UHGV virus genome: UHGV-1366603
Source of the DNA: a virus
Length of the DNA stretch: 64,000 bases
Reading direction: 5' to 3' (one strand)
The notes beneath the pieces were generated by a model. That model was not told where the DNA came from, ran no database searches, and saw only the letters and a program-made list of their open reading frames with translations. The stretch's first letter is position 1; each line of letters starts with the position of its first letter. This document shows positions 16,372 through 32,548 of this stretch, in pieces. Made by a program: the position numbers and the translations under genes.

Positions 16372-16418
16372 GTACCTACCTCCGAAAGGAGGTAGGTTAA
16401 CTTTCTTTTTTTCTTTTT
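16372..16418. terminator. bidirectional terminator, member of a repeated hairpin family
   Basis: GTACCTACCTCC-GAAA-GGAGGTAGGT followed by T-run; near-identical copies at 40076 and 57286. Confidence 0.65.
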
Positions 16419-16982: not shown

Positions 16983-16998
16983 TATTTCCTCTCAAACA

Positions 16999-19200
16999 TT
17001 AACGTGCTTGCGGCAGGAAGATGTTCGCGATCTGGCGTGCTGGGATAACATCCAGTGCCGAGTTAATAAAACTACCCTGCGACCATGCAGATGCCCAGTT
17101 TTGTGCCCAGATGCTCGCATTAATCTTGGCACGCGCAATACCGTTAGTACGTTCGTACAACGTAGCACCACCTAAACACGCCATAAATTCACTGAATTTG
17201 TTATCATCATCCCACACACCTGTGTCAGTAACAATGGGCATGTACATAACGCGAGTCAAATCACGAATAGTAACAGAGATGTCGCAAGACAGTGGGACGG
17301 AATCACCTGGCCGCCAACCTAAACCACCCACACCGAACTGTAACGACATCGACGTTACCATTGCATTACGGAACGAGAAACGTCCTTGAGAGTAACACTC
17401 TAAGTAGAACGGGTGGGTAAAGGATTGTTTACCGGTTGCGAGCGGACACACTGCTGCAATCCAAAACGAAAGCGGAACTAACAAATCCTGGAAAATATCC
17501 AGGTCGTTACCCGACCAACAACGTAAAGGAATGGTTAAAGTAATGTCGTCTCCTGATGCGTCAGAACTATCCCAGACTTCTGGGAAGTCTATCACCGAGG
17601 AGTTGTACAACGACATTATCCCTGTCAAATGTAGGGTGTCTGCAACGCCTCGCATCGCTGACTTAATACCGGAAACTAAAGCATCGACCGCACTAAAACC
17701 GGTTTGTCCACCCGACAGGTTAACCTCCAACGAACGCGCTTTTGCTGTTGCGGAGTTTACCATCCCGGAAATCTCAGGTTCTTTCGTGGAGTTAGAGAAC
17801 GAACGCGAAACGGTGTCTTTACCGTCAATACGCCAAGTAACCCATTGTGAACCGTTCTTAATCTCTGACAGGACGTTATCGCCAACATCCGCAACCATGT
17901 CGGTAAACTCTTTAAAGAACGTTCCTACTTTGGATTCATCTTTACCTTTGTTCATCCAATCTTGGACTTGAACGATGTCTCCTTCGGTAAGGTCTTCTGG
18001 GTTCTTTTCATCTAACGTAGAGTTCAACTGCTTAGCTGCTGCCGCACGTTTCTCCATGGTCTGACGGGTTTTTTCCTGCTCAGATTGGATTTCTGCGGCT
18101 TGCTGTTGTAGTTCATTAGCGGTACCACCCACCACCAGGCTATTACTCATCTGTCCGATGAGCTGGTCTTCCTGACTGTCAATATCCTGTATCGGAGAAG
18201 CGTAACCACCCTTTTCACTTCTGGCAACTTTTTCCAAGTCGTATAGCGAGACTTCGAACTGTTCTGCTTTTAGACGTACGTTATCGCTGTAAGTAGCATT
18301 ATAGTAAAACGCACGTAAGCGACTAGCAAACAATTCTTCATCGTCACCGGATTCTACACGAATCGCATCGATAGTTTTAGCCTGATAGTTCGCCAAGGTC
18401 TGGTAACGGTTAATCATTCGGTAAATGTCAAACTCACCGTTCGCTTTCCAGACTTCGGGTAAGGATTTATACCACTCTTCACGATCTTTATGGTAACTAT
18501 TTTCTTTGCTTTCGGTATCGTAGCCCAACGCAAAAGTCCCTAACACCCCTGTAGGTACCAAACGACGGTAAATTAGCTGGGTATTCAGGATGTTTTGCAC
18601 CGCGCGCAAATACAGATGCATTGTGGGCTTAACGTAATAGTATCTTGACGTTTCTTTATTCAGCGCTGCCGAAAGAATCCTCGGTGTAATCAGAATCACC
18701 GCAAACGCTACAGTACCCACCGTCGCCCAAATAGCAGCCGCACCGATGTACGATGCCGCTGTTCGAATAATTCCTGGATAGTCACCTGTACGCGCAAGAT
18801 ACGCCAGGTTAGAATCGTACATGTTCGCAAAGAACGAAGCCATGCCCAGATACTTCGGTTTACCGAAACGGCAATGAACGTAAAATGAGTTCTGGCTGAT
18901 ACTTTCGTAGTAATACGTCCCTAAGCGATAAGACCCTGCGGCTGAGGAGTTATAAAGGGACTCGGTACCGCTCTTAGTCGCGTCGGGTTGTGCAAACGCG
19001 CCTGTTGAGGAAGGGTCTGCAAAAAGTGTAAACTGGGGCGGTGTGTTAATCGCTTTACTGCCACCAACTGTGGTGTCTTCAAACGACATCATACCACCGG
19101 AATAGCGGCGCAAGGCCAGGAAACGTTCATCTCGGCCATCGACTGCGCCATTAAATAGGTTTTTGACCCAGCTTGAGTCGTTAACTGTTCTAGCGTCCAC
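16999..19200 (-). CDS. hypothetical protein, possibly virion-associated (733 aa)
   Basis: GTG start with AAGAGG RBS; co-oriented directly downstream of the giant SLT-domain gene; one hydrophobic segment. Confidence 0.45.
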   Translation of the reverse strand: MDARTVNDSSWVKNLFNGAVDGRDERFLALRRYSGGMMSFEDTTVGGSKAINTPPQFTLFADPSSTGAFAQPDATKSGTESLYNSSAAGSYRLGTYYYESISQNSFYVHCRFGKPKYLGMASFFANMYDSNLAYLARTGDYPGIIRTAASYIGAAAIWATVGTVAFAVILITPRILSAALNKETSRYYYVKPTMHLYLRAVQNILNTQLIYRRLVPTGVLGTFALGYDTESKENSYHKDREEWYKSLPEVWKANGEFDIYRMINRYQTLANYQAKTIDAIRVESGDDEELFASRLRAFYYNATYSDNVRLKAEQFEVSLYDLEKVARSEKGGYASPIQDIDSQEDQLIGQMSNSLVVGGTANELQQQAAEIQSEQEKTRQTMEKRAAAAKQLNSTLDEKNPEDLTEGDIVQVQDWMNKGKDESKVGTFFKEFTDMVADVGDNVLSEIKNGSQWVTWRIDGKDTVSRSFSNSTKEPEISGMVNSATAKARSLEVNLSGGQTGFSAVDALVSGIKSAMRGVADTLHLTGIMSLYNSSVIDFPEVWDSSDASGDDITLTIPLRCWSGNDLDIFQDLLVPLSFWIAAVCPLATGKQSFTHPFYLECYSQGRFSFRNAMVTSMSLQFGVGGLGWRPGDSVPLSCDISVTIRDLTRVMYMPIVTDTGVWDDDNKFSEFMACLGGATLYERTNGIARAKINASIWAQNWASAWSQGSFINSALDVIPARQIANIFLPQAR

Positions 19201-19245
19201 TTTCTACCTCTTTAAGATGGGGGTGGTTTCCCACCCCCGTTTGTA

Positions 19246-22200
19246 TTAACCTGCACGTCTAACGTTAAGCTGTCGTGCTGGCTGTTCAACGGACATTTGT
19301 CGTGATGCTGAACCTGCTGGTGCCATAGGTTGAGCCGATGCGGTGTTTTGTACCGGTTGTGGACGTTGCTTAAGGATCGTGACAATCTCTTTGAGATAAC
19401 CCGCCGATTCTTTCGCAACAGCCAACTGCTGAACACTAATCGGATCGCCACTGCTAAGTGTAGGTCCGTTTTGTGCATCAGAAGTAACCGCAGGTGCCGG
19501 TTTACTCGTCGCTGCTGCGCGCTGCACAGCACCTTCTTTCACCTTCTCGACATCTTCTTCAGGCAACCCTTCATTTCTGGCTCCAGTTGCAACAGTCTCC
19601 CCAATCATAGAGGCGTCACCGCCTGCACTACTACCGCCAGGTGACGGTACTGCTGGACCACCACTGGTTGCAGCTTTGACGTTGTCCGCACCCATTGCAC
19701 CTTTCTCTGCTAACGCTTCATCACGACGCGCAGCATTGGACGCAGGCAAGTTATCCGTCGCTCCAGAAATTGATGGATCGTTAGCTGCCCCTGCTGCTAC
19801 CGCCGGAGAGGAGGCAACCGCAGGCGTTAGCCCTTTCACCATGTCTTTCGTTGAAGCTGGGTTAGCCGCAATTTCGTTTGTCGCCACAGCACCCATACGG
19901 CGGTTCAGTTCATTAATAACTTCACCAACAGTACGAATACGAACAATCTGCTTGCCGCGCATTTCGTAGAAGACCCCCTTATTACCACTAAGGATTTGAG
20001 GAGTAATGCCTTCTGCTTTGTCGGCTGGCATGTTCGGATTCTGCCGCCATGCATTAAGGAACTTCTTACCACCGCCTGGGCCCAAGAAGTGATACAGATA
20101 CGCAACAGCCGGAGGCGGTTCTACACCACCTAAGTCTTTCTGCGCCTGCATGATATTGTCACGAATAAACTGTACCCCGAGGATGGTATTTGCCCACGGG
20201 TCGTACTGGTTTACTTGCGGTATACCGTACCGACGAGAGTACCCTTTCATCATTCCAGACCACGTTTTGTCAATGAACTGGAACAACCCTGCTGCTGACG
20301 CACCTGGGTTCTTGACACCATATTTGAAATCAGATTCGGCTTTCGCCATCGCAATCGCGACCGCAGGCGGAACACCTAAGGTATTTGCGACATCCGCAAT
20401 CATCGCTTTAACGCCTTCTACGTTAGGTGACTTACCATCACCCAGTTTGCTGATTGGATACTTCTCAGCCAAGGTTTTGTAATCACCTTCTTTGACGTCC
20501 CCGAGTTTAATCCCGGATTGGCCCGTAGAGAACTTCGCGTAATTGCTAATACCCATCTCACCCACAACTTGAGACAGATCACCCGGTGTACCGTAAGACG
20601 ACCCACCGTTTGGCAAGTACCCATCCTTAGACGCTGTACCCCAATCAACAACACCTTTGAAACGATCTTTGGTGTCTTCGTCGGTTTGGTACATTCTCGT
20701 CGCACGATCGGCTTTCTGCCACTTCGCACGTTTACCTGCTGCGGGTGTAGACCGCAGGGTATCACGAACAGCCAGGTCAGGTTCTTTGGACAGTTCTTTC
20801 AGGTTGGCAAGTTCAGTAGCAACAGAACCTGCGTCGGTGTTTGCTTCTTCACCCAGTGGGTTGAACGGAATCTCCCACACGGACTGACGAATACCACCCT
20901 TCATGTTGTAAGCGCCACGAATCATCAACGCCAATTCGTACATGAACCCACCGGATACTTTCAGTTCGGTAGGGTCTGCTTGCGGAATGTAACGTTTCAG
21001 ACCAACGACGTAGGTCATATACGCCGGTAAGAAACGGTTGTAGAACCAGTTCTTACAACGCTCCTCTTTAGGACCACCTATCAGGTCAGGCGAGATAACC
21101 GCAATGGCTTCTTTCCAGTTGCCTTTATAGGTACAGTTCTTCACATCAATGTCTTTCAACACGTTCTTCTCTAACAGTGTGAAAAGATTACGCGTTGTTT
21201 GGTTGATAGTAACCGCACCGTAGGTTTTCCACCTGACCGATTCCAGGTCTTCCAAATCACTTTTCTTCGGTAAGGAATGCCAGTCAACTTGGATTTGAAC
21301 CTGTTCAGTTCCGTCTTCCCAACCTTCGACCTTCGCAACTTTCTCGTTACGTTCAGCATCTGCATTCGCCAGTACCTGACTGGTTTCAGCAACGGACGCA
21401 ACTTTGTGGCCTTCGACAGCATCACGCATACCTGAACGTTGTTTCCGTTTGTCGTCAGTACGCATGTTGATTGACCGCCACACACGTTCCTGTGCTTCGA
21501 CAACCTCTTCCCCTGACAAGAACTCTGCCGGAGTAAAGGTAACGAAATCCCACGCTTTAGAGAACCAACCCTGGTTAACTTTACGCGGGTCAGTCAATGA
21601 ACGGAATTCCGCAGAATCTTTACCCATCTTCATTTTGTTGTAGAGGGTAATCATATCCGCTTTCGACACTTTCTTCGGATCACCAACATCTGCCAAAGCG
21701 ATGTCGTTATCCATCGACTTCAGTGCTGAAATCCAGCGGAGGTAAATCGGTGCGAAACGTTGTAGCATAAACGCAGTAAATGCTAACATCTCACCACGTT
21801 CTTCCAAGTTTACACCGAACCCTTCTGCGAGTTTCTTCACGTCTTCGGAAGACAAGCCACGTAATTGTGCTTCACCCCCTTCGGTATACGAGACGTAAGG
21901 TTTCAAAGCGTCTTCTAAATAACGGGCTTTCATACCGTCTTCAGAAGACCACTGGTCGTAGTCACGGAAACCGTATTGTGCCAGACGCATATAGTCGAGG
22001 TACTGTGCTTTCACACGGGTAGCGCATTTATACGCCCAATAACCCAGACCAGCGGCAGTCGCACCGATCGCAATTGCAGGCCAACCCACCGCAGCCACTA
22101 CCGTAGATGCAGCCGAGGCTACCGCAGTCACTGCCGGTACCGCTAAACGTTGTACAGCAAACTTACCAACGTTCCACGCTGCTTTACCGAGGAACCCGGT

Positions 22201-25200
22201 AGGTTTAAAAATACCCCACTTCGCAACTTTGCCCAGTATCGAACCCACCGTACCTAAGATACTCACGATTGGTCCTACTAACGGTAAGTCTTTGAGGAAG
22301 TCCATCACCCCGCCTTTACGTCCTTTCTGCTCAGCGGTTTTCTTGGCTTTCTCTTCTTCCTTAGAACGTCTACGACGACGGAAGAATTGGAAGTAGTCAC
22401 GTTTTTCATCGTTGGCTGCCGGTTTGTTACGTTGTCCGAACTTACTGAACATCGTACGAATCAGGCCATCAGGTGCACCAGCACGTTCCGCAGAGTCACG
22501 CATGGTGTTAAACCAGGACATTTCCTGGAGGTTAACCATCCGGTTTAAACGTTCCAATAATGCTGAACCAACACTCTTCGCTTTCTGCTTACCTTTGTTG
22601 ATAACGCGTCCTGCGGTATCCGTTGCGGTTTCGAAATCCTCCTTCGCTGCGTTAAACACGCGTGTTGGAGAAACCTTACCACGAGCGTACAAGTGTTGAC
22701 GGTAAAACTCCGCAACGTCATCATCACGACCCGCTAAACGCGACTCCGCCCGATAACGTGTGGCAATATCGTAGCGTGGGTCACGGAAGCTATCTACTGT
22801 TTCACCAAAGCGCCCACGGAAACGGTCAAACCACCCTTTACCCGCAGCGCCCCAACGAGACAGTCTATCGCCAACGCCATGACGGAAACGTGAGAATCGG
22901 TCACGTTGTCTGCCTCGCCAATCCCGGAAATTCTGGAAGTAATCTTTAAATCCGTCGCGGAAATCCTTAACACGGTTAAGCATCCCTTTGATAGATTTCG
23001 AGCCAACGTTTTTCTCCAGTTGCTCCGTCCAGGATTCATCTTCAGGCTCACCGTCTAAACGACGGTTAAGGAGTTTATAGATACGAATCAGGATATGGTT
23101 GGTCTTACGGCCATTCGACCAAGAGAACATGCTGAAGCCACCGCCAGAACCACCTTCCTTACGATTCTGCCACCACCGGGTAAGCGGGTTGTCGGTCGCT
23201 AACTCTTTGAATTTCTCAAAGCCACGTTTTGCATTGTTCCACAAACGAGCAGGCATTCCGGTTACGCGAGAAATCATGCTTTGTAAACGTGTTTTCTCAC
23301 TCCCCTCAGGAATCTCATTAAGCCACTCACGCGCTTTCTCGAAGATAGACGCTGCTCTTGGCGAGATTAGACCAATCAGTTTCTTCGGTAAGTTAACAGC
23401 TTTGTTTACTGCTGTACCTGCTTTACCGGAGATATACTGGAACAGGGCCTGGAGTTTACCGCCTTTATAGAAGCGCAGTTTACCCGCAGCCGCTAAGTCT
23501 GCCGCTGCGAGAATCAAGTTCCCGGCTTCGTCAACAATATCACGACCCAGCTTAATGTCGTCTAACGAGCGGAGTTGTACCAGCTTGTTGGTTTTAGGGT
23601 CAGCCTGATAATACTCACCTGCCTCTAAACGGCTTCCTTGTAAAACAACATTGCCTTTCTCGTCGTAGATGTCCCGAACACCAAGAACACCTTTCCCGAA
23701 GGCGACCGCCGAATTCCAGCCTGTGGACAACGTACCAGTAACTAAACCTTTCAGTCGTTCAAAAACACCTGGACCGTCAGATGGCCCACCGGAGAATTTC
23801 CCACGAATAAAACTGCCCAGTGACTGTAAACGCCCTTTCCCTCTCAGGAACATGTTCTTCGCAAAACGACCCGCGCCCGTACCGGTGTCCCAAAGTACGC
23901 CCGCCCAACGACGGAACAGCCCACTTTCACCAAGCACGATGCGTTTACGCTTGCGTTTGTTACCGGTGCTACCTGCATCTTCAGAAGCGTCACCCTCGTC
24001 ACCGTCACGACCACCACCTAAGCTGGCCAGCAGGATACCTTCCTCATCCATGTTCTTAACATGTTTCAGAATTTCCTGCACGGTGTTGGATTCGGACTTA
24101 TTACGAATAGCATCAACGATTCTATCAAACTGTTGCTCTAACCCTGCGGTGGTATCAGGACGTTCGCTTAGCAGTTCAACAAAGTTGGTAGATTTTTCAC
24201 CGTAGAGGACAGCAGCAAGTTGTCGTGCCGACAGTCCACGGCCACCGCGACCGCCTTTACCTTTAACGGTGTCAATTGTCGACTCGTCACCGGTTACGGA
24301 GGCGTCTACCCCTAAACGACGTAAATAGTCACCTAGCGCAGAACCGTTTTTCAGTTTGCGCTGGATTTCTTGTTCACGCGTTAACGAACGACCGGAACGG
24401 GTTTTCCCCATGGCCAGGTCGTTATACAGCGTATACGGATCGTTAATGTCTTTATCTACATCAAACCGATCGTTCTTCGCATCGTACTTAAAGATACCTG
24501 CATCACGTAACGCATTCTCACCGTAGATAATTGAAGCTTCGTCTACCGTGTTTTGACGTGCACGAATTGTTGACTGAATGGCCGAAATCTTACCAGCGAT
24601 TTCGTTGCTAAGTTCGTGATGACCGCCTGTCAGTTCTGAAGACCGTGCTTCTAAGACCGCCTGAATCGCTTCTACCGCGTTTGCATTCATGTAACGATAC
24701 ATGTGCATCGGGTCTTTCAGCAGACTGCCTACGTCGAACGCCTTACCTTCAGACGCACGTGATTCGATATAGTCCGCCAGCGCTTGGCGAGTTTTCGAAT
24801 CCAGAGTTTTGTCTTTGTCGATAAAGTCAACGGTTTCGTTAATGTACTGCTGTAAACGCTTCCGCTGTTCATCGTTCGCAACCGCTTTACGGACACGGTT
24901 GCCGACAACTTTACGGTCAATCATCCCACGCGTGGTTAAATCGTACACCTGGTCGTGGTGTTCGCCGTACCCGCGACGAATAGATTTGTTAATCTCCGTC
25001 AGCAAAGTCGGGATGACTTCCGTGATGCTAAGATACGCTTTACGGTCGAACTTCGCAGCGGCGGATAACGCTTCTGCTGAACGTTCTTCTAAAGCTAATC
25101 CCTCACGACGCAGCGGTGTCACTAACCCCATCTCGTGCATTAAACGGAAGACGGTGGCCAGTGGGCCGTCTATCTCACCAGCAATCGCCGAGTTAGAGAT

Positions 25201-26382
25201 AGAAGATAAGTTACCGAACCCGTAGCGTGCCAACTGAAGCCGTTTCATGACTTCTGGGTTCTTTTCTAACTCACTGCGTGTCCAGTTCTGTAAACGTTCT
25301 ACCTGAGGTTGTAAGAACCGTTTTGCTAACCAACTACCGGCAAACCCTGCGACTTTACCTCGGGAATTCGTACGACGACGTTCTGGCGACAGTGTAGAAC
25401 TGTCTTCCATGCCGAAGTCGTCTTCCTGACTCATTGACAGAACTTGTTCTAATATCCCGCGTCCGTCGCTGAAGATATTCGAAATCTTTTTCTTCGCGTT
25501 CTCACGAATCTGATCAATAAAGTTATCCGCGTAACGCAAGGGGTTCATCCATTCGGCAGCTTTACGTTTTACGTTAGCCCAACGAACTTCAGAGAATTCC
25601 TCTTTTGCGTAGTCCGGCAACGCGGTGTTTTTAACAATCGCTTCAAGTGCCGGGGTGTTACGGCTAAACTCATCCTGTTTAAGTTTAGCAATATCTTGCA
25701 ACGCGAATAACGTACGGTATTGCAGCTCTAGCTGTTTACGCTGAACGTTAAGCATTACCCCGCGACTTAAACTGGTCGTCAGGTTAACGTCTTTCGCAAT
25801 ACCGATAACCGTCTGGAACAGCGCATCGGACTTCATGTCCTTGATGGTGTCACGAAGACGGTCTTCTACCATTCCTTCCTGAACTTCACGTTGTTGTTCA
25901 GGTGTTTGTGGCGTACCTGCAAAAACAGAGTCTAACTCACGATCCATTAACGCTTGTTTAGGATCGTAATTCCCGTAATCGTACTGGTCGCTTTTCGCCC
26001 ACTTGTCGATCTTACGGGTTACACTGTCAGGCAAATACCGTTTTAGGGTTGGGCCTAACTGACGAGCTTGTGCCTTCACCACACGGGAGGTCTTTTCAAT
26101 CTCGTCTTTCGTATGGGCCAGAATGTCTTGACCTGCGGCTTTGACGTTCTTATAACCTTCATAAGCGTCAGTCGCCGGTTTTGGCATTCCTTTTAAAATG
26201 ACCTGATCACGTTTATTTTCGGGCCAGATAGTCGACAACGCCGACTTACGGGCAGCACGAAATGTGTCCATGACCGGGTTACGCGATTGGTCTTGTTGAC
26301 GAGGGGGCTCATCAAAATCGTCCCAGTCGTCCATGTTATCAAGATCGATTTCATCGAAATCGTCTTTACCTTTTTTAGCCAT
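19246..26382 (-). CDS. giant virion-type protein with lytic transglycosylase (SLT) domain (2,378 aa)
   Basis: SLT signature AESDFKYG...AAGLFQFIDKTW and AYLYHFLGPGG near residue ~2000; acidic N-terminus; hydrophobic segments; Ala/Pro/Ser-rich C-terminal tail; size and domain placement recall phiKZ gp181. Confidence 0.7.
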   Translation of the reverse strand: MAKKGKDDFDEIDLDNMDDWDDFDEPPRQQDQSRNPVMDTFRAARKSALSTIWPENKRDQVILKGMPKPATDAYEGYKNVKAAGQDILAHTKDEIEKTSRVVKAQARQLGPTLKRYLPDSVTRKIDKWAKSDQYDYGNYDPKQALMDRELDSVFAGTPQTPEQQREVQEGMVEDRLRDTIKDMKSDALFQTVIGIAKDVNLTTSLSRGVMLNVQRKQLELQYRTLFALQDIAKLKQDEFSRNTPALEAIVKNTALPDYAKEEFSEVRWANVKRKAAEWMNPLRYADNFIDQIRENAKKKISNIFSDGRGILEQVLSMSQEDDFGMEDSSTLSPERRRTNSRGKVAGFAGSWLAKRFLQPQVERLQNWTRSELEKNPEVMKRLQLARYGFGNLSSISNSAIAGEIDGPLATVFRLMHEMGLVTPLRREGLALEERSAEALSAAAKFDRKAYLSITEVIPTLLTEINKSIRRGYGEHHDQVYDLTTRGMIDRKVVGNRVRKAVANDEQRKRLQQYINETVDFIDKDKTLDSKTRQALADYIESRASEGKAFDVGSLLKDPMHMYRYMNANAVEAIQAVLEARSSELTGGHHELSNEIAGKISAIQSTIRARQNTVDEASIIYGENALRDAGIFKYDAKNDRFDVDKDINDPYTLYNDLAMGKTRSGRSLTREQEIQRKLKNGSALGDYLRRLGVDASVTGDESTIDTVKGKGGRGGRGLSARQLAAVLYGEKSTNFVELLSERPDTTAGLEQQFDRIVDAIRNKSESNTVQEILKHVKNMDEEGILLASLGGGRDGDEGDASEDAGSTGNKRKRKRIVLGESGLFRRWAGVLWDTGTGAGRFAKNMFLRGKGRLQSLGSFIRGKFSGGPSDGPGVFERLKGLVTGTLSTGWNSAVAFGKGVLGVRDIYDEKGNVVLQGSRLEAGEYYQADPKTNKLVQLRSLDDIKLGRDIVDEAGNLILAAADLAAAGKLRFYKGGKLQALFQYISGKAGTAVNKAVNLPKKLIGLISPRAASIFEKAREWLNEIPEGSEKTRLQSMISRVTGMPARLWNNAKRGFEKFKELATDNPLTRWWQNRKEGGSGGGFSMFSWSNGRKTNHILIRIYKLLNRRLDGEPEDESWTEQLEKNVGSKSIKGMLNRVKDFRDGFKDYFQNFRDWRGRQRDRFSRFRHGVGDRLSRWGAAGKGWFDRFRGRFGETVDSFRDPRYDIATRYRAESRLAGRDDDVAEFYRQHLYARGKVSPTRVFNAAKEDFETATDTAGRVINKGKQKAKSVGSALLERLNRMVNLQEMSWFNTMRDSAERAGAPDGLIRTMFSKFGQRNKPAANDEKRDYFQFFRRRRRSKEEEKAKKTAEQKGRKGGVMDFLKDLPLVGPIVSILGTVGSILGKVAKWGIFKPTGFLGKAAWNVGKFAVQRLAVPAVTAVASAASTVVAAVGWPAIAIGATAAGLGYWAYKCATRVKAQYLDYMRLAQYGFRDYDQWSSEDGMKARYLEDALKPYVSYTEGGEAQLRGLSSEDVKKLAEGFGVNLEERGEMLAFTAFMLQRFAPIYLRWISALKSMDNDIALADVGDPKKVSKADMITLYNKMKMGKDSAEFRSLTDPRKVNQGWFSKAWDFVTFTPAEFLSGEEVVEAQERVWRSINMRTDDKRKQRSGMRDAVEGHKVASVAETSQVLANADAERNEKVAKVEGWEDGTEQVQIQVDWHSLPKKSDLEDLESVRWKTYGAVTINQTTRNLFTLLEKNVLKDIDVKNCTYKGNWKEAIAVISPDLIGGPKEERCKNWFYNRFLPAYMTYVVGLKRYIPQADPTELKVSGGFMYELALMIRGAYNMKGGIRQSVWEIPFNPLGEEANTDAGSVATELANLKELSKEPDLAVRDTLRSTPAAGKRAKWQKADRATRMYQTDEDTKDRFKGVVDWGTASKDGYLPNGGSSYGTPGDLSQVVGEMGISNYAKFSTGQSGIKLGDVKEGDYKTLAEKYPISKLGDGKSPNVEGVKAMIADVANTLGVPPAVAIAMAKAESDFKYGVKNPGASAAGLFQFIDKTWSGMMKGYSRRYGIPQVNQYDPWANTILGVQFIRDNIMQAQKDLGGVEPPPAVAYLYHFLGPGGGKKFLNAWRQNPNMPADKAEGITPQILSGNKGVFYEMRGKQIVRIRTVGEVINELNRRMGAVATNEIAANPASTKDMVKGLTPAVASSPAVAAGAANDPSISGATDNLPASNAARRDEALAEKGAMGADNVKAATSGGPAVPSPGGSSAGGDASMIGETVATGARNEGLPEEDVEKVKEGAVQRAAATSKPAPAVTSDAQNGPTLSSGDPISVQQLAVAKESAGYLKEIVTILKQRPQPVQNTASAQPMAPAGSASRQMSVEQPARQLNVRRAG

Positions 26383-26411
26383 AACGTTTAATCCGTATCA
26401 GGAGATTTAGC

Positions 26412-28037
26412 GTGAATAAACTTAATTGGGTTGACTTTTATCTGCTCAATGTAAACAAGTCTCTTGTGTCGCGATTACGACCCGTCACGACCACAGATAC
26501 TTTTCAAGGGTTGACAAAAAACTTTCACCCTGAAGGGTTATACTCCACGGAGATATTCGGTCTTACGGGAAGTGAAGCCCGAGACTCAACGTTTTCTTAC
26601 ATTGATATTAAATTAGATATCATTTCGCCGACGGTGTGTTTGGCGTTATTCCAACTAAAACAACTCTACGAAGAAATTTGTTCTGGAAAACGCTACGCAA
26701 CCTGGAGCGAAAAAGAAAAAGATTTTGAACCGGCTTTGCCTGGCGACGCTGGCGCAGATACCGGTTTTAACTTTTTCCTTAGTCACTACAACGACTTAAA
26801 ACCCGGACGTAACGAATCGTTACAACGTGACGAAACGGTGGATTTCTTCGAGAAGTTCCGTCCCGTGAGTCTTAGCCGCTATGTTCTCGTATTACCCGCA
26901 GGTTTACGTGATTTGGTGGTTAGACAAGACGGTAGGGAACAGGAAGAGGAAATCGGCGGGTTATATCGTCGTTTGATTTCTTTGGCCAGGGCGATTCCTG
27001 ACCGTGCCACACGGGTTGAATTAACGAACCCTGTGCGATGGAAACTCCAACAAACCTTTAACGAAATCTGGATGTACTTCTTTAACATCCAGGACGGTAA
27101 AGGGGGTTTCCAACGTCGTAAAGTGACGTCGCGTAAACTGATGAACGGGACACGTAACGTATTGTCCTCATTCTCCACAGGCTCTAAATGCATGGGGCGT
27201 GAGGATGCGATTCGACCAACTGACACCAAAATTGGTTTGTATCAGGGTCTGAAGGCGTTACTGCCCGTTGCGCAATACCAGATACGTGAACGTTACCTCG
27301 GTAACATTCGTGCTGGCGATGGCAACCTTTACGGCGTAAACACCAAAACGCTTAAACGCGAGTTCTTGGAAGTTGGGGGTCGAGTTTACGACACCTTTAC
27401 CACGGACGACGGTATCGAAACATTAATTAACCGAATGGAAGCTCGCGAGCTTCGTCATCAGCCGTTAATGATTAACGATACCCATTACGTCGCGTTAGTC
27501 TACCAAGACAACAAACATTTTAAGGTGTTCTACGATATCGATGAACTGCCTAAAACGTTTGACCGTAAAAACGTCCACGGAATGACCCTGGTAGAACTAC
27601 TCTACTTATCGGGTTACGATCTGTGGAACAACTATTTCGGTTTCGTTACACGTTATCCCGTCACCGGTCGAGGCTCGACGTACTCATCGACCATAAGATT
27701 GGAGACCACCACGTCATCTTTATACTTAAAAGAACTGGAAGATGACTGGGAGACTGAAAAGCCTCGCGGGGCAATCAGTTATCCTGACCGGTCGGTTCCA
27801 ACCTTTGTTGAGTCGATGGCACCGCACCCGTCACGACTGGGTGGCTTAGGGGGTGACTACGACGGTGACACCGGTTCACTTAACGCGCCTATGTCGGAAG
27901 AAGCGCTCGAGGAAAACCGTAACTGGGTACACTCGAAGAACTACTGGTTCGACTCTGACGGGAATTTCAAAATCAACCCCGTCAACAACGTGATTAAACG
28001 TGCGACGCAAGCGTTATTAAAGAATCCAAAAGGCTAA
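26412..28037 (+). CDS. RNA polymerase beta-prime-like subunit, N-terminal fragment (541 aa)
   Basis: GTG start with AGGAG RBS; segments parallel to bacterial beta-prime: EIFG, LVLPAGLRDLV...LYRRLI, GKGGFQRRKV, and DYDGD matching the NADFDGD catalytic loop near the C-terminus. Confidence 0.6.
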   Translation: MNKLNWVDFYLLNVNKSLVSRLRPVTTTDTFQGLTKNFHPEGLYSTEIFGLTGSEARDSTFSYIDIKLDIISPTVCLALFQLKQLYEEICSGKRYATWSEKEKDFEPALPGDAGADTGFNFFLSHYNDLKPGRNESLQRDETVDFFEKFRPVSLSRYVLVLPAGLRDLVVRQDGREQEEEIGGLYRRLISLARAIPDRATRVELTNPVRWKLQQTFNEIWMYFFNIQDGKGGFQRRKVTSRKLMNGTRNVLSSFSTGSKCMGREDAIRPTDTKIGLYQGLKALLPVAQYQIRERYLGNIRAGDGNLYGVNTKTLKREFLEVGGRVYDTFTTDDGIETLINRMEARELRHQPLMINDTHYVALVYQDNKHFKVFYDIDELPKTFDRKNVHGMTLVELLYLSGYDLWNNYFGFVTRYPVTGRGSTYSSTIRLETTTSSLYLKELEDDWETEKPRGAISYPDRSVPTFVESMAPHPSRLGGLGGDYDGDTGSLNAPMSEEALEENRNWVHSKNYWFDSDGNFKINPVNNVIKRATQALLKNPKG

Positions 28038-28040
28038 TCA

Positions 28041-31000
28041 ATGCTGCTCATTAAACAGTTTAACCAACGCTTCTCTGTGCGTAAAACAGACGAGTTTGGT
28101 AATCCGAGGATTATCCCGCTCGAGAAGCTCCAGATACCACGAGGCTCCATACTGCACGTCGTGGATCTCGATCAGGTGGTCTTAGCGCCACCTGCTACGC
28201 TGGAAATCATCCAGCCGTTGGAAAAACCTGCACAAATTCGCCACCACTTTAAACTTCCCGAAGAAGGGATTAGTGGGCATCCACGTAACAAACCTGTGCA
28301 GGGGCAAGAACGTGCTATCTTTGCGTACCATCGCGCTAACCGTCCAATTCGTCGTCTGACTTCAGATGACCTGGTGCGTAAAGACTTAAAAGTTCTCCTT
28401 ATTGAGAACTACACACCGATGTTATCGCACTACTATTATCCAGACACTCAGTTAGCCTGGTACGATAGACTGCGTAATATCCAGCTGTTAATGACCAACC
28501 AGTTCAAATACGACACGCAAGAATACATGCGTCAGAACTATTTCGTGATTGAGCTGGGATCAACGTTACCGTCTTTCCAGAAGTTCCAAACGACGTATAA
28601 CGATCGCGTTAAAAGCAAGATTGAAAAGTTCCAGGACTTTAACCTGCTGTGGCTGTTGGAACTTTTCGCTTGGGCGTACGGTAAACAGTCCGATTCTCTG
28701 TTTGCGGGAATGGACTTAACGCAACTGTCTCGAATGAACTTCATCTTCACCCATAACGGCGGCTTTACGTCGATGAACATGGGTGTCGTGGAGAAGATGC
28801 GTAAATCGTCCGGTGGTCGTTTAAGTGACGACCAGATGGCCAGGATGTTCTATCGTACGTTAGTGCGTGTAATGACACAAGCACCGTCTAATGCGTACGA
28901 AGCTGAATTCCTGACACCGGAAGGTGATGAACGTATCTTTGTTAAAGACATCGAAGAAGAGACGGTTGACGTCGCTGACGATGGAGACGTTGTTAACGAC
29001 GCTGTGGTTGAATCGGATAACGCATTCGATGAAAAAGAAGACCTCGTTATTGAGGAACCGAAAGAAGACGTTAAGCCGACGACTATCGTTATCGAAAAAA
29101 CGATTGCTCACGATGACATTATCAAACAGGAAGCGCAGAAACTGGCTGAGGCGGGCCGCTTAAGCTCTAAAGCGTATCAGTTCCTGTCTGATTCGACTAA
29201 ACGTTTCGTTCAGTTACCGAACCCGTATAACCCGAAAGAGACTTACGGTGAAGCATTAACCATTCACGAAAAAGACATTGCCGTGAAAGCGGAACCGAAG
29301 AAAGTCCAGCGACTGGTTACGGATGAAGGTTGGGCAGAAAACGTCACCGACCAAATGGTGAAACAATACAACCAGACCATGATGAGTAAAGACGTACTGG
29401 CAGCTGTCGCCAGCTCGCAGCGTCTTGGTTTGGCTATTCACAACCACACGATCGAGAAAGAGATTTCCGTTACGGGAACTATCGAACACCACACCCTGCG
29501 TGTTCAACCGATTGGTGGTGAACCGACGACAGTGCGTTTCTCTATCCCTGGTCTAACCGAAGACGGTACCTGGGTAGCAAACGGTGTTGAATACACCATG
29601 CGTCGTCAGCGTGTAGACGTGCCGATTCGTAAGGTCGCCCCAGACACCGTAGCGTTAACGACCGCTTACGGTAAAAACTTCGTACGTCGCAGTGACAAAG
29701 TCGCAAACGACTACGGTCGCTGGTTAACGAACGCGATTATCACGCGTGCCGTAGACCCGACCAACACGGAGATCACTGACGCACGTCTCGCGAACGTTTT
29801 CGATCCTACTGAGAAACTTCCTCGTCAGTATACGGAGATTGCACGTCGTATCGCCAGCTTTAATGCAGGCGGGTATATGTGGAACTTCGATTATAAAGAA
29901 GCGGTTAACTTCTTTAATGACGAACAGCTTACTGACGCAAACAACGTTGAGATGTTGCCGGTTGCGAAACGTCCGCGTAGTGAAGTTATTGTGGTGATGG
30001 ATACCAAGTCCATGCTCTATACCGTTAAGGGTAAAGAGTGCACACCGCTGGGCACCATCTCTGAAGTGCTTGGTTTCAGTAACCAGAAAGCGCCAAGAGA
30101 GATGACCGAACTTTCACTGATGGGCAAATCGCTCTCACTGGGCTTCATCTTCTCGTTCTATTTAGGTCTGCAAGGGATGCTTAAGCATTTCGGCATTCAG
30201 TACGAAATCGTCCCTGTTGGCCAACGTGTAGATAAGAGCACGTACGATTCTATTATTCGTCTCCAGGACAGTAAGTTCCTGGTAACGTGTGATAACGATC
30301 AGCAACGAATGATTCTACACGGTCTGGATAAGTACCTGAAACACCTGGTAGCTTATACCGAGTCCGAAGTCGACCGCGAAGACATTTACCTGAACTTAAT
30401 ACGTGATGCAGATGGGCTAACTCCACGCTACATCAACGAGCTGAAACAAATGCGGGCCGCGTTTGTTGATGACATGCACGCACGTATCCTCAGGAAAATG
30501 GGTGAACCGGAAACCTTTATCGGGCTGTTGGAACGTTCTAACGAACTGTTACAAACCGACCACTCTTTGCCGGAGATTAACGGTGATGAGATGATGTTCT
30601 TAGGGAACCAACGTATTTCCTACCACATCTACACCGCGTTGGTCAGGGCGATGCGTAACTACAACAACGCACCGAACAGTAACCGTAAGTTCGAACTTAC
30701 TCAGGACATGATTTGGGGTGCCATTAACTCCGACCCGTCTGTTCTGTTAGCGCCGGGTGCTAACCCTATCCAGTCGATTAAAGAGAAAGACGTTATCACC
30801 ATGGGGGGCACGGGTGGCCGTAACCGTAAAACAATGGTTTATCACACGCGTGAGTTCCAACCGAGTGACCTGGGTATTGTATCCGGTAACACGGTGGATA
30901 ACGGTGACGTAGGTATTACTGCTTTCGCCACTAACAACCCACGTTTTGATACCGTTGACGGCACCACCTATAAACGGGATGAAAAGAAACTGAAGCCGAG

Positions 31001-32207
31001 TGACACTCTGTCATTTATTGACGGTCTCGTACCGGATACCCTGATGGATGACGCTAAACGTCAAAACTTCGTTGGGATTCAGTTAGGTTCTGCCACCAGT
31101 TGCAACGGCGCTACCACTACCCCTTATCGTACCGAACAGGAGAAATTTGTCGCTCACCGTACGTCGGTGAAACACGCACGCGTTATTGATAAAGCAGGTA
31201 AAATCACCGGTCTGTCTAAAGACCATATCGAAATTACGTACGAAGATGGAAGTAAAGAAGCCTTTCCTCTAGGGCGCTGGTTCGGCCCCCACGAAGGTAC
31301 CTTCTATCCGCACACCCTGGTGACTCGCTGGAAAGCCGGTGACAAACTCCCGGCCGGGGCAGTCATCACCTATAACGAGCAACACTTTGAACCCGATATC
31401 TACGACCCTACTCAGGTTTCCTGGAAAAACGGGGTGCTGGCTACCGTCGCTCTAATCGAAGCTGAAGAAGTAATCGAAGACTCCAATGCTATTTCTGAAC
31501 GGTTCGCGAAGAAAATGGTTGGGCAGGTTACTAAGCTGAAAGAAGTGGTGATTAACAGCAACCAGATGCTCCTGGAAATCGTTAACGAAGGGGAACACGT
31601 TGACGTCGACACAATCCTATGCACATTTACTGACGACCTTACGGGGGATATGAGTACCTTTAGTAAGGAAGCAGCACAAACGTTGCAAAGTTTAAGTTCG
31701 TACGCGCCTCGTGCTGGGGTTCGTGGTATCGTGGATAAAATCGAAGTCGTGTATCACGGTGAAACCGAAGACATGACGCCTTCACTGGCAGAACTGGTAC
31801 GTAAATACGATCGCATTCGTCGTAAAGCAGCATTGGCTGTTAATCGTGGCGATCCGGTATCAGGGAGTGTTAATGGGGATTACCGTGTAGAGGGTGTACC
31901 GTTAGCCTTTAACTCGCTTTGTGTTCGATTCTTTATTACGCACGAAGTTGAAATGGCCGCAGCGGATAAGATGGTTATTGCTAACCAGCTGAAAACCACT
32001 GTACAAGAAGTGATGTACGGGGAAAACAAAACAGAAGATGGCGACGACATTGACATTTTGTTCGGTCGTGATTCTGTCGACGCACGTATCGTAGGTTCTA
32101 TCCAACGAATCGGTACCGCAAATGCTGTGGGTGAACAAGCAGGGATTCTTATCGGTCGTATTCTCGACGGCGAGTCCGTGCCTGAGTTACCAGCGACACT
32201 TAAATAA
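28041..32207 (+). CDS. putative RNA polymerase beta-like subunit fragment with long N-terminal extension (1,388 aa)
   Basis: Adjacent to the beta-prime fragment; region ITMGGTGGRNRK...VDNGDVGITAFATNNP loosely parallels beta GPGGLTRERAGFEVRD...PEGPNIGLINSL; weak call. Confidence 0.4.
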   Translation: MLLIKQFNQRFSVRKTDEFGNPRIIPLEKLQIPRGSILHVVDLDQVVLAPPATLEIIQPLEKPAQIRHHFKLPEEGISGHPRNKPVQGQERAIFAYHRANRPIRRLTSDDLVRKDLKVLLIENYTPMLSHYYYPDTQLAWYDRLRNIQLLMTNQFKYDTQEYMRQNYFVIELGSTLPSFQKFQTTYNDRVKSKIEKFQDFNLLWLLELFAWAYGKQSDSLFAGMDLTQLSRMNFIFTHNGGFTSMNMGVVEKMRKSSGGRLSDDQMARMFYRTLVRVMTQAPSNAYEAEFLTPEGDERIFVKDIEEETVDVADDGDVVNDAVVESDNAFDEKEDLVIEEPKEDVKPTTIVIEKTIAHDDIIKQEAQKLAEAGRLSSKAYQFLSDSTKRFVQLPNPYNPKETYGEALTIHEKDIAVKAEPKKVQRLVTDEGWAENVTDQMVKQYNQTMMSKDVLAAVASSQRLGLAIHNHTIEKEISVTGTIEHHTLRVQPIGGEPTTVRFSIPGLTEDGTWVANGVEYTMRRQRVDVPIRKVAPDTVALTTAYGKNFVRRSDKVANDYGRWLTNAIITRAVDPTNTEITDARLANVFDPTEKLPRQYTEIARRIASFNAGGYMWNFDYKEAVNFFNDEQLTDANNVEMLPVAKRPRSEVIVVMDTKSMLYTVKGKECTPLGTISEVLGFSNQKAPREMTELSLMGKSLSLGFIFSFYLGLQGMLKHFGIQYEIVPVGQRVDKSTYDSIIRLQDSKFLVTCDNDQQRMILHGLDKYLKHLVAYTESEVDREDIYLNLIRDADGLTPRYINELKQMRAAFVDDMHARILRKMGEPETFIGLLERSNELLQTDHSLPEINGDEMMFLGNQRISYHIYTALVRAMRNYNNAPNSNRKFELTQDMIWGAINSDPSVLLAPGANPIQSIKEKDVITMGGTGGRNRKTMVYHTREFQPSDLGIVSGNTVDNGDVGITAFATNNPRFDTVDGTTYKRDEKKLKPSDTLSFIDGLVPDTLMDDAKRQNFVGIQLGSATSCNGATTTPYRTEQEKFVAHRTSVKHARVIDKAGKITGLSKDHIEITYEDGSKEAFPLGRWFGPHEGTFYPHTLVTRWKAGDKLPAGAVITYNEQHFEPDIYDPTQVSWKNGVLATVALIEAEEVIEDSNAISERFAKKMVGQVTKLKEVVINSNQMLLEIVNEGEHVDVDTILCTFTDDLTGDMSTFSKEAAQTLQSLSSYAPRAGVRGIVDKIEVVYHGETEDMTPSLAELVRKYDRIRRKAALAVNRGDPVSGSVNGDYRVEGVPLAFNSLCVRFFITHEVEMAAADKMVIANQLKTTVQEVMYGENKTEDGDDIDILFGRDSVDARIVGSIQRIGTANAVGEQAGILIGRILDGESVPELPATLK

Positions 32208-32216
32208 TCTCAAGGG

Positions 32217-32238
32217 GTGGGTCGCTCCCACCCTGATA
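32217..32238 (+). other. hairpin without U-tract after the RNAP beta-like gene
   Basis: GGGTGGG-TCGCT-CCCACCC. Confidence 0.35.
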
Positions 32239-32254
32239 AACTCCGGAGTAGAGA

Positions 32255-32548
32255 ATGTCTATTTTAGATAAAATCAAACAGCGACACGGTATTCCGACTG
32301 GGAAAAATATTACCCAGCAAAGCGTGGAGGGCTATAGCCCTATCCAACGTACTAACTACGTGTCTTTGGGCAACACGGTTGAACTGACAACGGAAATCGT
32401 GCACGGCTTGATTCGTGGCAATTCTGGAATGTCTGACCGTATCGGCGATCAGAAACTGCTGAAACGCGATATCGCTGACCTGGTGGGAGCTCGTTTGTAC
32501 ACGAAGCTTCAGGATGCCGTCACCACCAATAATGAGGTTAAACAATGA
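32255..32548 (+). CDS. hypothetical protein (97 aa)
   Basis: GGAG RBS. Confidence 0.45.
   Translation: MSILDKIKQRHGIPTGKNITQQSVEGYSPIQRTNYVSLGNTVELTTEIVHGLIRGNSGMSDRIGDQKLLKRDIADLVGARLYTKLQDAVTTNNEVKQ

Follow-up and report, generated by a model that had tools for sequence, protein, structure and literature searches.

The region between positions 19246 and 32207 of the window (the whole 64,000-nt stretch of viral DNA analyzed here) very probably represents the conserved core block of a jumbo phage that is related to phiKZ and belongs to the SPN3US/phiEaH2 lineage; in this block, a tail lysin gene lies divergent to genes for a virion RNA polymerase (RNAP). The analysis established directly the homology of the proteins, their domain content, the order of the genes, and the conservation of both start codons and of the spacer between them. 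The parent genome of the window is that of an SPN3US/phiEaH2-like jumbo phage of ∼223 kb. Independent gene callers placed the same boundaries for the three main open reading frames (ORFs) on four public ∼223-kb contigs, in agreement with the 2,378, 541, and 1,388 aa given in the initial annotation, and PHROG families spanned the full length of all three proteins. Gene order was identical in phiEaH2, SPN3US, PA7, and four further genera. The phiKZ-like signature first noticed in the sequence, a giant SLT protein of the gp181 class divergent to split virion RNAP genes, was thus borne out by full-length PHROG matches, orthology to SPN3US and PA7 proteins, and shared gene order. At the nucleotide level, the nearest named phages were ∼75% identical across the half of the region that aligned best, and none of the phage records in the collection covered 80% or more of it; the phage is therefore a separate species or genus-level lineage. 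Proteins identical to those of the window were found in gut metagenomes and Salmonella assemblies.

The leftward gene (positions 19246 to 26382, minus strand, ATG start) encodes the giant protein of 2,378 aa, a predicted tail-interior lysin of the tape-measure class. It matched phrog_3201 over its full length (E value, 0). The Pfam SLT domain (PF01464) was located at residues 1998 to 2083 with an E value of 6e-8, exceeding the curated cutoff, and contains a catalytic-type glutamate in an AES motif (Glu2016) and a GLFQF motif at residue 2032; from its sequence, it is a predicted lytic transglycosylase. Its position near residue 2000 and the low-complexity tail had both been described correctly, the tail (residues 2160 to 2378) being composed of 20% Ala, 9.6% Gly, 9.6% Ser, and 8.2% Pro. 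The N terminus is acidic (Asp, 21.7% of residues 1 to 60), an Arg/Phe-rich stretch extends over residues ∼1150 to 1260, and hydropathy analysis revealed two hydrophobic segments at ∼1365 to 1387 and ∼1412 to 1447. SPN3US gp239 and phiEaH2 gp159 were 61% identical to the giant protein over the full length. PA7 gp187 aligned in two collinear BLASTP segments (E values, 6e-36 and 2e-17; 24% and 21% identity), in keeping with the proposed resemblance to the phiKZ gp181 class. Judged by these alignments, the giant protein is orthologous to SPN3US gp239 over its entire length and is a collinear homologue of the gp181 class.

Most database records instead present this protein as a tail fiber or receptor-binding protein; the label “tail fiber protein” is attached to phrog_3201 and to the GenBank records of phiEaH2, SPN3US, Asesino, Machina, and PA7. 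This reading is very unlikely to be correct, and the label appears to be a propagated annotation. SLT was the sole Pfam domain, with no tape-measure, fiber, or receptor-binding domain detected, whereas its pair of membrane-like hydrophobic stretches and its low-complexity regions are typical of tail-interior or ejection proteins. Moreover, SPN3US gp239 has been treated as a tape measure (PMC5105663), and the homologous phiKZ gp181 class comprises structural peptidoglycan hydrolases placed at the cell-puncturing device (PMC5380687). Between “tape measure” (PMC5105663) and “cell-puncturing needle” (PMC5380687) for the gp181 class, the literature consulted is divided. T5 Pb2, a tape-measure/tail-tip protein with a muralytic domain, has been listed beside phiKZ gp181 (PMC5380687). 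Pb2-type proteins and the giant protein share a very long, low-complexity or helical tail-interior character, hydrophobic segments, and a peptidoglycan-hydrolase domain; we regard this likeness as a functional analogy and not as demonstrated family membership.

Downstream of the giant gene, and probably in the same transcription unit, lie two minus-strand virion-protein genes to which phrog_3181 and phrog_2935 were assigned: a gp238 homologue of 733 aa (positions 16999 to 19200) and a gene of 187 aa (positions 16419 to 16982). A bidirectional terminator was predicted at positions 16374 to 16397, where this leftward unit ends. A GC hairpin that lacks a U-tract (dG, −19.9 kcal/mol; z, −3.97) lies in the 45 nt between the giant gene and the next gene of this unit.

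The first gene of the rightward string (positions 26412 to 28037, plus strand, GTG start) encodes the 541-aa β′ N-terminal subunit, matching phrog_2986 with an E value of 1.6e-235 and corresponding to SPN3US gp240 (87% identity) and phiKZ gp180. Public assemblies annotate this protein at 100% identity. As proposed initially, it is a β′ N-terminal fragment carrying the catalytic Mg-binding loop DYDGD, which was located at residues 482 to 486; D482, D484, G485, and D486 were invariant among 34 homologues. The equivalent loop of phiKZ gp180 is DFDGD, and ∼10 copies of that protein are packaged per virion and injected (PMC10612078). The family profile matched the β′ N subunit of the AR9 non-virion RNAP (7s00_d; E value, 8.5e-14) and cellular β′ (2e-10 to 6e-6), while hhalign against Escherichia coli RpoC aligned residues 140 to 252 with 218 to 356 (probability, 88.6). 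The protein stops at about E. coli β′ residue 510 to 520, and it contains three Cys residues and no N-terminal zinc ribbon.

The adjoining gene (positions 28041 to 32207, plus strand, ATG start) encodes the 1,388-aa β-like subunit, corresponding to SPN3US gp241 (77% identity) and phiKZ gp178. Pfam detected no RNAP domain in either the 541-aa or the 1,388-aa protein; however, a β profile matched Thermus β (E value, 7e-4), and a fold search with an AF2 model of residues 346 to 1388, of moderate quality (pLDDT, 65), returned nothing but RNAP β chains among its top 50 hits (E value, 2.7e-14). Profile and fold searches thus recovered both β′ and β, whereas the initial annotation had named a failure of profile searches to do so as a refutation of its assignments. 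The N-terminal 293 residues make up a basic domain (pI 9.5) that is predicted to be folded and had no neighbor in the PDB. It is followed by an acidic linker (residues 294 to 343; 22 Asp/Glu of 50 residues) and by the β body, from ∼400 to 500 to residue 1388, which reaches about residue 914 of the 1,119 in Thermus β; the C-terminal region of β is absent. While a β-like protein with an acidic tract was confirmed, the N-terminal extension of ∼900 aa claimed for it was not: β homology already aligned at residue ∼503 (Thermus β residue 117), residue 905 corresponds to E. coli β residue 516, and the model of residues 346 to 1388 matched whole β chains. From alignment and model, the non-β part comprises about 350 to 480 aa, in line with the ∼400-aa extension published for SPN3US gp241 (PMC5105663). 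Residues 2 to 1368 of the 1,388-aa protein aligned with residues 3 to 1435 of the PA7 counterpart, and the N-terminal domain is common to the phiKZ-type gp178 class.

Could the products of these two genes belong to the non-virion (middle/late) RNAP instead of the packaged virion enzyme? Among solved structures, the 541-aa profile indeed matched the AR9 non-virion β′ N subunit (7s00_d) best, and virion and non-virion enzyme sets are split similarly (PMC5105663, PMC8287921). However, since no structure of a virion RNAP exists, the AR9 enzyme is simply the one jumbo-phage RNAP that the PDB has to offer. SPN3US gp240 and gp241 were found in heads by mass spectrometry (PMC5105663), both genes here are located in a virion-protein/protease block of conserved order, and the N-terminal domain of the β fragment is the one shared by the gp178 class. 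Assignment to the non-virion enzyme is therefore extremely improbable.

Beyond the two RNAP genes, the rightward string continues with conserved plus-strand genes of 97 aa (positions 32255 to 32548; SPN3US gp242) and 486 aa (positions 32545 to 34005; 56% identity to SPN3US gp243), to which phrog_8223 and phrog_3841 were assigned and which were placed alike in all relatives compared. Next follows a gp244-like virion protein of 242 aa (positions 34023 to 34751, plus strand), matching phrog_2926, “virion structural protein” (E value, 1.8e-90). Its GTG start at position 34023 is preceded by AGGAGG with a 5-nt spacer, the longest ORF beginning at position 34017. The protein was 87% identical to SPN3US gp244 and 31% identical to PA7 gp192, and its homologues are 240 to 242 aa long. 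SPN3US gp244 and phiKZ gp176 have been proposed as a fifth virion RNAP subunit representing the β′ C terminus (PMC5105663, PMC5312081). The gp244-like gene is thus a probable third virion RNAP gene of the same string, which the initial annotation had missed. Profile searches did not recover β′ homology for it, the sole match being the lambda P helicase loader (E value, 7e-4). The prohead (head maturation) protease gene (positions 34783 to 35586, plus strand; phrog_3014; E value, 1.3e-104) is the conserved right-hand neighbor in relatives. A scan of 23 window ORFs revealed neither the β C fragment nor the β′ middle fragment.

The two divergent start codons are separated by 29 bp (positions 26383 to 26411), matching the ∼30 bp noted before. 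On the plus strand, the spacer supplies a Shine-Dalgarno AGGAG to the GTG-started β′ N gene. The giant gene is preceded by a 3-nt GGA alone, 9 nt upstream of its ATG; the reported lack of an obvious ribosome binding site was therefore correct in substance, but it is no peculiarity of this gene, as this weakest Shine-Dalgarno class of the window is shared by several others. A misannotated start, with translation beginning at an internal codon or a separate small ORF present, would explain both the weak GGA match and the tiny spacer, and the first in-frame Met after the annotated one is codon 17. Even so, such an error is very improbable. Alignment showed that the ATG, the N terminus MAKKGK..., and the GGA at 9 nt are kept in seven genomes of six related genera as well as in the present phage. 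The phrog_3201 profile aligned from residue 1, independent gene calls gave 2,377 to 2,378 aa, and other genuine genes of the window are preceded by Shine-Dalgarno sequences just as weak. In addition, the initiation regions of both divergent genes are unstructured (z, −0.28 and +0.32), the giant gene is A-rich after the ATG, and synonymous conservation at its 5′ end peaks in the first 12 codons. The spacer measures 23 to 32 bp in phiEaH2, SPN3US, Asesino, Machina, Kwan, and EarlPhillipIV (29 bp, as here, in SPN3US, phiEaH2, and Asesino) and 63 bp in PA7. Since both start codons and the 23- to 32-bp spacer are conserved across six related genera, the start of the giant gene, previously considered unclear, is not in doubt.

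No recognizable promoter motif, and no sigma-70-like site, was present in the 29-bp spacer; sigma-70-like sites were depleted in the region as a whole (9 observed versus 19.7 expected). The consensus of the phage non-virion RNAP is (−3)TATG(+1) (PMC7618050). TATG was just 2.6-fold enriched upstream of window genes, and none was usefully placed at the divergent spacer. Early promoters of the virion RNAP consist of an AT-rich element, 6 nt, and G(+1) (PMC5312081); five candidate early promoters that fit this architecture, AGATATTAT-N6-G, were located in intergenic regions elsewhere in the window. The phiKZ virion RNAP genes are middle genes (PMC10612078), and both divergent units here are probably non-early and read by the second RNAP of the phage, the non-virion enzyme. 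The phiKZ non-virion enzyme uses promoters of only 4 to 5 bp that overlap the start site, and such compactness would account for a 29-bp spacer being sufficient. Alternatively, the divergent promoters may sit within the opposite coding sequences.

Gene order, orientation, and sizes are the same as in the SPN3US gp239-gp245 block (Seoulvirus) and in phiEaH2 and Asesino (Erskinevirus), including the GTG start of the β′ N gene. Genomes of that group measure 240 to 246 kb, compared to ∼223 kb here, and their β′ N-to-β gap is 2 to 20 nt, compared to 3 nt. The phiKZ genes gp181/gp180/gp178/gp176/gp175, compared via gp187-gp193 of the phiKZ-like phage PA7, have the same divergent layout, with the common order giant lysin, β′ N, β, a small protein, ∼500 aa, ∼240 aa, and protease. 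The SLT domain occupies the same relative position in the phiKZ-type giant protein, and β has the same N-terminal domain. Identities to PA7 were 24 to 33% overall (30 to 33% for the RNAP proteins, including the gp244-like protein), and BLASTP at an E value of 1e-3 revealed no PA7 counterpart of the 486-aa protein. In some phiKZ-type relatives the β gene is interrupted, with an endonuclease within the matched region in PhiPA3; in other lineages, β proteins stop at positions equivalent to residue 526 or 1003. With the AR9 non-virion RNAP (PDB 7S00/7S01) and bacterial β/β′, the proteins share the two-barrel multisubunit core, the DxDGD loop, and the β fold, but this similarity was seen by profiles or folds only, as Pfam models fall short. 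As further differences, the N-terminal zinc ribbon is missing, β′ is split just after the catalytic loop, and β carries an extra N-terminal module of ∼350 aa.

The block is well described in related phages and is therefore ordinary for a phiKZ/SPN3US-type jumbo phage. What is said here of virion packaging, ejection, expression timing, enzymatic activity, and the N-terminal domain's role is inferred from orthologues and the literature. SPN3US heads contain gp240, gp241, gp218, gp42, and gp244, which are jointly lost in a gp241 amber mutant (PMC5105663), and the virion enzyme has no known alpha, omega, or sigma homologues (PMC13282480). By analogy, the rightward string would encode head-packaged proteins: β′ N with the catalytic Asp triad, a β fragment covering most of β and headed by a phage-specific basic domain and acidic linker, then two virion proteins, the small gp244-like protein as proposed β′ C terminus, and the prohead protease. 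The RNAP pieces would assemble with β C and β′ middle fragments into a multisubunit enzyme without alpha, omega, or sigma homologues, which would be carried inside the capsid, be ejected together with the DNA, and transcribe early genes from AT-rich promoters. The leftward giant gene would provide a tail-interior protein whose SLT domain would cut peptidoglycan, while its hydrophobic segments probably aid passage of the tail content across the envelope during ejection.

The block includes three genes: a giant gene encoding 2,378 aa from an ATG start (positions 19246 to 26382, minus strand), a gene for a 541-aa N-terminal fragment of the RNA polymerase (RNAP) beta-prime subunit with a GTG start (26412 to 28037, plus strand), and an ATG-initiated gene for a 1,388-aa beta fragment (28041 to 32207, plus strand). 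All three are present just as the initial annotation described them, and the same gene calls with the same 29-bp gap between the divergent genes were found in four public ∼223-kb contigs bearing an identical 541-aa protein. The assignment to a phiKZ-like family, made from a giant SLT-domain protein and split RNAP genes, likewise proved correct. The order giant gene (minus strand), ∼540-aa gene (plus strand), and genes for ∼1,400, ∼97, ∼490 and ∼240 aa followed by a prohead protease gene is common to phages phiEaH2, SPN3US, Asesino, Machina, Kwan and EarlPhillipIV and to the phiKZ-type phage PA7. Amino acid identities to SPN3US gp239, gp240, gp241, gp243 and gp244 were 61%, 87%, 77%, 56% and 87%, respectively. 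The PA7 equivalents of the RNAP genes (beta-prime N, beta and a gp244-like gene) were 30 to 33% identical, and the giant protein matched its PA7 equivalent in two segments of 24% and 21% identity. In SPN3US, this module has already been dissected genetically: gp240 corresponds to beta-prime N, gp241 to beta N, gp218 to beta C, gp42 to the beta-prime middle region, and gp244 is a candidate beta-prime C; all five are head proteins and a gp241 amber mutant yields particles without any of them, gp241 itself being essential and having a ∼400-aa N terminus that is not beta (PMC5105663). In phiKZ, gp180, which carries a DFDGD motif, is packaged at ∼10 copies per virion and injected, and the genes of the virion RNAP (vRNAP) are middle genes (PMC10612078). 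We are highly confident that the block is a member of this well-known module of phiKZ-related jumbo phages, from a widespread phage.

The lysozyme-like SLT domain that the initial annotation had placed in the giant protein was recovered by Pfam (PF01464, residues 1998 to 2083, E = 6e-8), with the Glu of the ES motif at residue 2016 and a GLFQF motif at 2032, and its position agreed with the alignment to PA7. The low-complexity tail was also evident, the last ∼220 residues being rich in Ala, Gly, Ser and Pro. In addition, the protein contains hydrophobic segments at residues ∼1365 to 1387 and 1412 to 1447 as well as an Arg/Phe-rich region. It belongs to phrog_3201 over its full length, and BLASTP against PA7 gp187 gave two collinear matches (residues 1451 to 2211, including the SLT domain, E = 6e-36; residues 12 to 550, E = 2e-17). 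Judged from its sequence, the giant protein thus appears to belong to the phiKZ gp181 class, as it combines an SLT domain with a catalytic-type Glu near the C-terminal fifth of a >2,000-aa protein with collinear homology. phiKZ gp181, for which tail location and muralytic activity have been shown (cited in PMC5380687), acts as a structural peptidoglycan hydrolase and has been placed in the cell-puncturing device (PMC5380687), and SPN3US gp239 is absent from tailless particles (PMC5105663); by analogy with these two proteins, the giant protein may be located in the tail and have muralytic activity. Its domain content gives no support to the label "tail fiber" found in databases. SPN3US gp239 is labeled "tape measure" in the literature (PMC5105663); no Pfam family representing a tape-measure domain was detected in the giant protein at E values up to 1.

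Recognition of the RNAP genes required family profiles and a fold search. Neither the 541-aa nor the 1,388-aa protein had a Pfam match at E values up to 1, and single-sequence searches of the PDB yielded a marginal beta-prime match for the former (E = 0.09) and nothing sensible for the latter. A 34-sequence profile of the 541-aa protein, however, matched the beta-prime N subunit of the AR9 non-virion RNAP (7s00_d, E = 8.5e-14) and dozens of beta-prime chains from plastids, cyanobacteria and bacteria (E = 2e-10 to 6e-6). In the profile search, residues 468 to 528 aligned to the catalytic loop of Escherichia coli beta-prime (446 to 507), and hhalign against E. coli RpoC aligned residues 140 to 252 to 218 to 356 with a probability of 88.6. 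The DYDGD motif noticed initially lies at residues 482 to 486, of which D482, D484, G485 and D486 are invariant. Consistent with a split gene, the polypeptide stops soon past the catalytic loop, without the middle and C-terminal regions of beta-prime, and the beta fragment gene begins 3 nt downstream. Homologues have a similar size (534 to 547 aa). Its sequence places the protein in the beta-prime N family of phiKZ-type vRNAPs (phrog_2986); packaging in the virion and injection are known for its orthologues SPN3US gp240 (PMC5105663) and phiKZ gp180 (PMC10612078), and would apply here by analogy.

For the 1,388-aa protein, a 21-sequence profile matched Thermus beta (residues 979 to 1103 to 529 to 655, E = 7e-4), with weaker collinear segments at 503 to 520 (to 117 to 134) and at 1294 to 1383 (to 822 to 914 of 1,119), the last of which had a negative score. 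hhalign against the single E. coli beta sequence aligned residues 905 to 1068 to 516 to 737 in the correct register, with a probability of only 4.4. In an AlphaFold model of residues 346 to 1388 (pLDDT 65), all of the top 50 Foldseek matches in the PDB were RNAP beta chains (E = 2.7e-14, probability 1.0). Profiles and Foldseek together therefore recovered the RNAP homology proposed in the initial annotation, and the protein shares the beta homology of the phiKZ gp178/SPN3US gp241 family (phrog_3148). Beta's C-terminal part is supplied in SPN3US by a separate gene, gp218 (PMC5105663); no gp218-like partner gene was present among the 23 window open reading frames (ORFs) scanned, and a PHROG scan of the window ORFs beyond the three genes described, 20 in number and including all those of at least 267 aa, revealed no further RNAP fragments.

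A phage-specific N-terminal extension without counterpart in cellular beta is indeed present, but it is not ∼900 aa long as initially proposed: residue ∼500 is the latest point at which beta homology can start, and a start near 400 is probable. Residues 1 to 293 are confidently predicted to form a separate domain (pLDDT >90 over most of residues 21 to 280, pTM 0.84), which is basic (pI 9.5) and directly followed by an acidic linker at residues 294 to 343, where 22 of 50 residues are Asp or Glu, corresponding to the acidic tract described earlier. The domain had no neighbor among solved structures, and a fold search of BFVD retrieved only the N termini of other jumbo-phage RNAP beta proteins, one of them from Bacillus phage PBS1. 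An exhaustive phmmer search returned 431 clusters; among the 150 clusters listed, the domain was N-terminal in all, in proteins of ∼530 to 630, 1,000 to 1,130 or 1,370 to 1,500 aa. Hundreds of jumbo-phage beta proteins carry it at their N terminus, across the range from SPN3US-like to phiKZ-like phages. The two shorter length classes end at the equivalents of residues 526 (after QRVD) and 1003, which indicates that the beta gene is further split or interrupted in other lineages; in PhiPA3, an endonuclease lies within the region matched by the beta protein. For the SPN3US N-terminal domain, capsid targeting has been proposed (PMC5105663). That the basic ∼290-residue domain and its DNA-mimic-like acidic linker are a working module of the enzyme, beyond a mere capsid-targeting tag, seems unlikely to us. 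If they were, the domain could provide, as a built-in module, the missing promoter recognition or assembly function of an RNAP without a sigma or alpha homologue, and would then read AT-rich early promoters of the form AGATATTAT-N6-G.

The spacer between the divergent start codons (26383 to 26411) measures 29 bp, close to the ∼30 bp estimated at first. It is 29, 29, 29, 29, 32 and 23 bp long in phiEaH2, SPN3US, Asesino, Machina, Kwan and EarlPhillipIV, respectively, and 63 bp in PA7, and alignment of the relatives showed that both start codons are conserved. AGGAG precedes the GTG of the beta-prime N gene by 7 nt, and GGA precedes the ATG of the giant gene by 9 nt. The initial annotation had seen no obvious ribosome binding site for the giant gene; the match is weak (GGA only), but other genes in the window have equally weak ones. 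No structure was evident in either initiation region (z = −0.28 and +0.32), and the giant gene reads GCU AAA AAA after its ATG. A UCC...GGA hairpin that might sequester the GGA was discarded, as the fold was no better than that of shuffled sequence (z = +0.32). With a conserved ATG, a GGA 9 nt ahead of it and an unstructured initiation region, the start of the giant gene, which had been called unclear, is well supported.

No promoter was recognizable in the spacer between the two divergent units. Sigma-70-like sites were depleted (9 found versus 19.7 expected), which fits transcription independent of the host RNAP, and none occurred in the spacer. The early motif AGATATTAT was also absent from the spacer; its sole nearby copy, with 1 mismatch at 26615, lies inside coding sequence and was taken as a chance occurrence. 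TATG, the late motif of phiKZ (PMC7618050), was only 2.6-fold enriched upstream of genes in the window, and was rejected as a promoter of the giant gene, where it is seen solely as an overlap with the start codon that relatives do not conserve. Another string, TTTTTAC, is found behind several stop codons but lacks specificity. Promoters of the phiKZ non-virion RNAP (nvRNAP) are only 4 to 5 bp long and overlap the start site (PMC7618050), so that a spacer of 29 bp poses no paradox. The promoters of the divergent units could alternatively sit within the opposite coding sequences; in AR9, 13 late promoters lie inside ORFs (PMC5312081). Synonymous conservation over the first 12 codons ranked 1/24 in the giant gene and 3/45 in the beta-prime N gene, at only 1.5 to 2.2 standard deviations above the mean, which is suggestive and compatible with embedded signals.

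Elsewhere in the window, five copies of (T)AGATATTAT-N6-G were observed, all intergenic and on the plus strand (7458 to 7473, 37255 to 37273, 52045 to 52060, 57343 to 57358 and 59729 to 59744), with the copy at 37.2 kb reading AGATATATATTAC. Each lies upstream of a plus-strand gene, and none precedes the genes of the giant/RNAP block itself. They match the early promoter architecture of the AR9 vRNAP, AAATATATATTAT-(6N)-G+1 (PMC5312081), and are probably promoters read by the enzyme of the vRNAP block. In the ORF at 52058 to 53215, the GTG of the longest reading frame (52058) coincides with the conserved G(+1)TG of the motif. An ATG at ∼52092 to 52094 follows AAAGGAG, and the alignment to the PHROG profile begins at residue 12 of the ORF, equivalent to a start at ∼52091; the true start is therefore probably ∼11 to 12 codons downstream.

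The leftward unit runs from the giant gene through a GC-rich hairpin without a U-tract to genes for virion proteins of 733 and 187 aa, and ends at a bidirectional terminator (16374 to 16397). The rightward unit comprises the beta-prime N and beta genes, a GC-rich hairpin, genes for 97 and 486 aa, the gp244-like gene, the protease gene and further genes. The hairpin directly after the giant gene (19201 to 19245, minus strand) had a dG of −19.9 kcal/mol and a z of −3.97, and the one directly after the beta gene (32208 to 32254, plus strand), also without a U-tract, a z of −1.0; both could either serve the stability or processing of the RNA or terminate transcription by the phage RNAP. A perfect palindromic terminator stem, ACCTACCTCC-loop-GGAGGTAGGT with flanking T-runs, was seen at 16374 to 16397, 40078 to 40102 and 57288 to 57311 (6 arm matches versus 0.09 expected by chance); two of the three lie between convergent genes and look bidirectional. 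GC skew was negative (−0.08 to −0.16) exactly over the leftward block (16000 to 26400), where it tracks the direction of transcription and does not mark an origin. A ∼3-kb region (53479 to 56536) had few convincing ORFs, and contained several AT-rich palindromic repeats around 53887 to 54047 and a tRNA-Ile (anticodon AAT, 55809 to 55885), the only tRNA found by ARAGORN in the window.

Between the beta and gp244-like genes, the 97-aa and 486-aa genes (32255 to 34005) stand where Goslar gp208 and gp209 do, to which they were likened by position only; the Goslar proteins are reported in a 2026 preprint to be abundant in virions, to be packaged without injection and to be predicted to form a heterodimer (10.64898/2026.04.21.720040). 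The gp244-like gene ends at 34751 on the plus strand, and its most likely start, judged by sequence, is a GTG at 34023 that lies 5 nt behind AGGAGG and gives a 242-aa product like those of its homologues. The protein, encoded at a conserved gene position, was 87% identical to SPN3US gp244 and 31% to PA7 gp192 (phrog_2926, E = 1.8e-90), which puts it in the family of SPN3US gp244 and phiKZ gp176, the proposed fifth vRNAP subunit. For gp244 itself, the published match to the beta-prime C-terminal region is weak (E = 0.05; PMC5105663), and neither profile search nor hhalign reproduced this assignment for the gp244-like protein: its profile matched no beta-prime chain in the PDB, and hhalign against E. 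coli RpoC, as a single-sequence target, gave a probability of 0.15. The single PDB match of the profile was the lambda P helicase loader (8v9t_V, E = 7e-4, residues 114 to 223 to 121 to 231), which may be due to chance.

By megablast, the region showed ∼75% nucleotide identity to the Erwinia phages phiEaH2, Stratton and Asesino and to SPN3US-like Salmonella phages, and no record with at least 80% coverage was found. The 1,388-aa protein was 82% identical to that of Asesino and 77% to that of SPN3US, and had homologues in 313 phage records, from jumbo phages of many hosts. NCBI assemblies of Salmonella enterica contained proteins with 99 to 100% identity, on contigs of 220 to 222 kb and deposited under isolates including serovars Chester and Wangata. 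The exact 541-aa protein was indexed in 289 blocks of public assemblies, on ∼223- to 224-kb contigs from human gut and other metagenomes. This jumbo phage is common and appears to travel with Salmonella or enterobacterial cultures. The window also carries genes for a tail sheath, terminase, prohead protease, thymidylate synthase and UvsX-like recombinase, a set typical of jumbo phages; of the markers of the Chimalliviridae, the nucleus-forming phiKZ-like phages (chimallin shell protein, PhuZ tubulin and a second, non-virion RNAP), the 23 window ORFs scanned included none.

As a core module well known from phiKZ-related jumbo phages, the block is in itself of little weight. The window nevertheless marks an undescribed yet widespread ∼223-kb SPN3US-like phage, and the propagated annotations "tail fiber" and "RNA polymerase beta subunit" are corrected here. 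Clean boundaries are now given for two questions, the role of the beta N-terminal domain and divergent initiation within 23 to 32 bp, both of which concern the whole phage family and are no peculiarity of the window.
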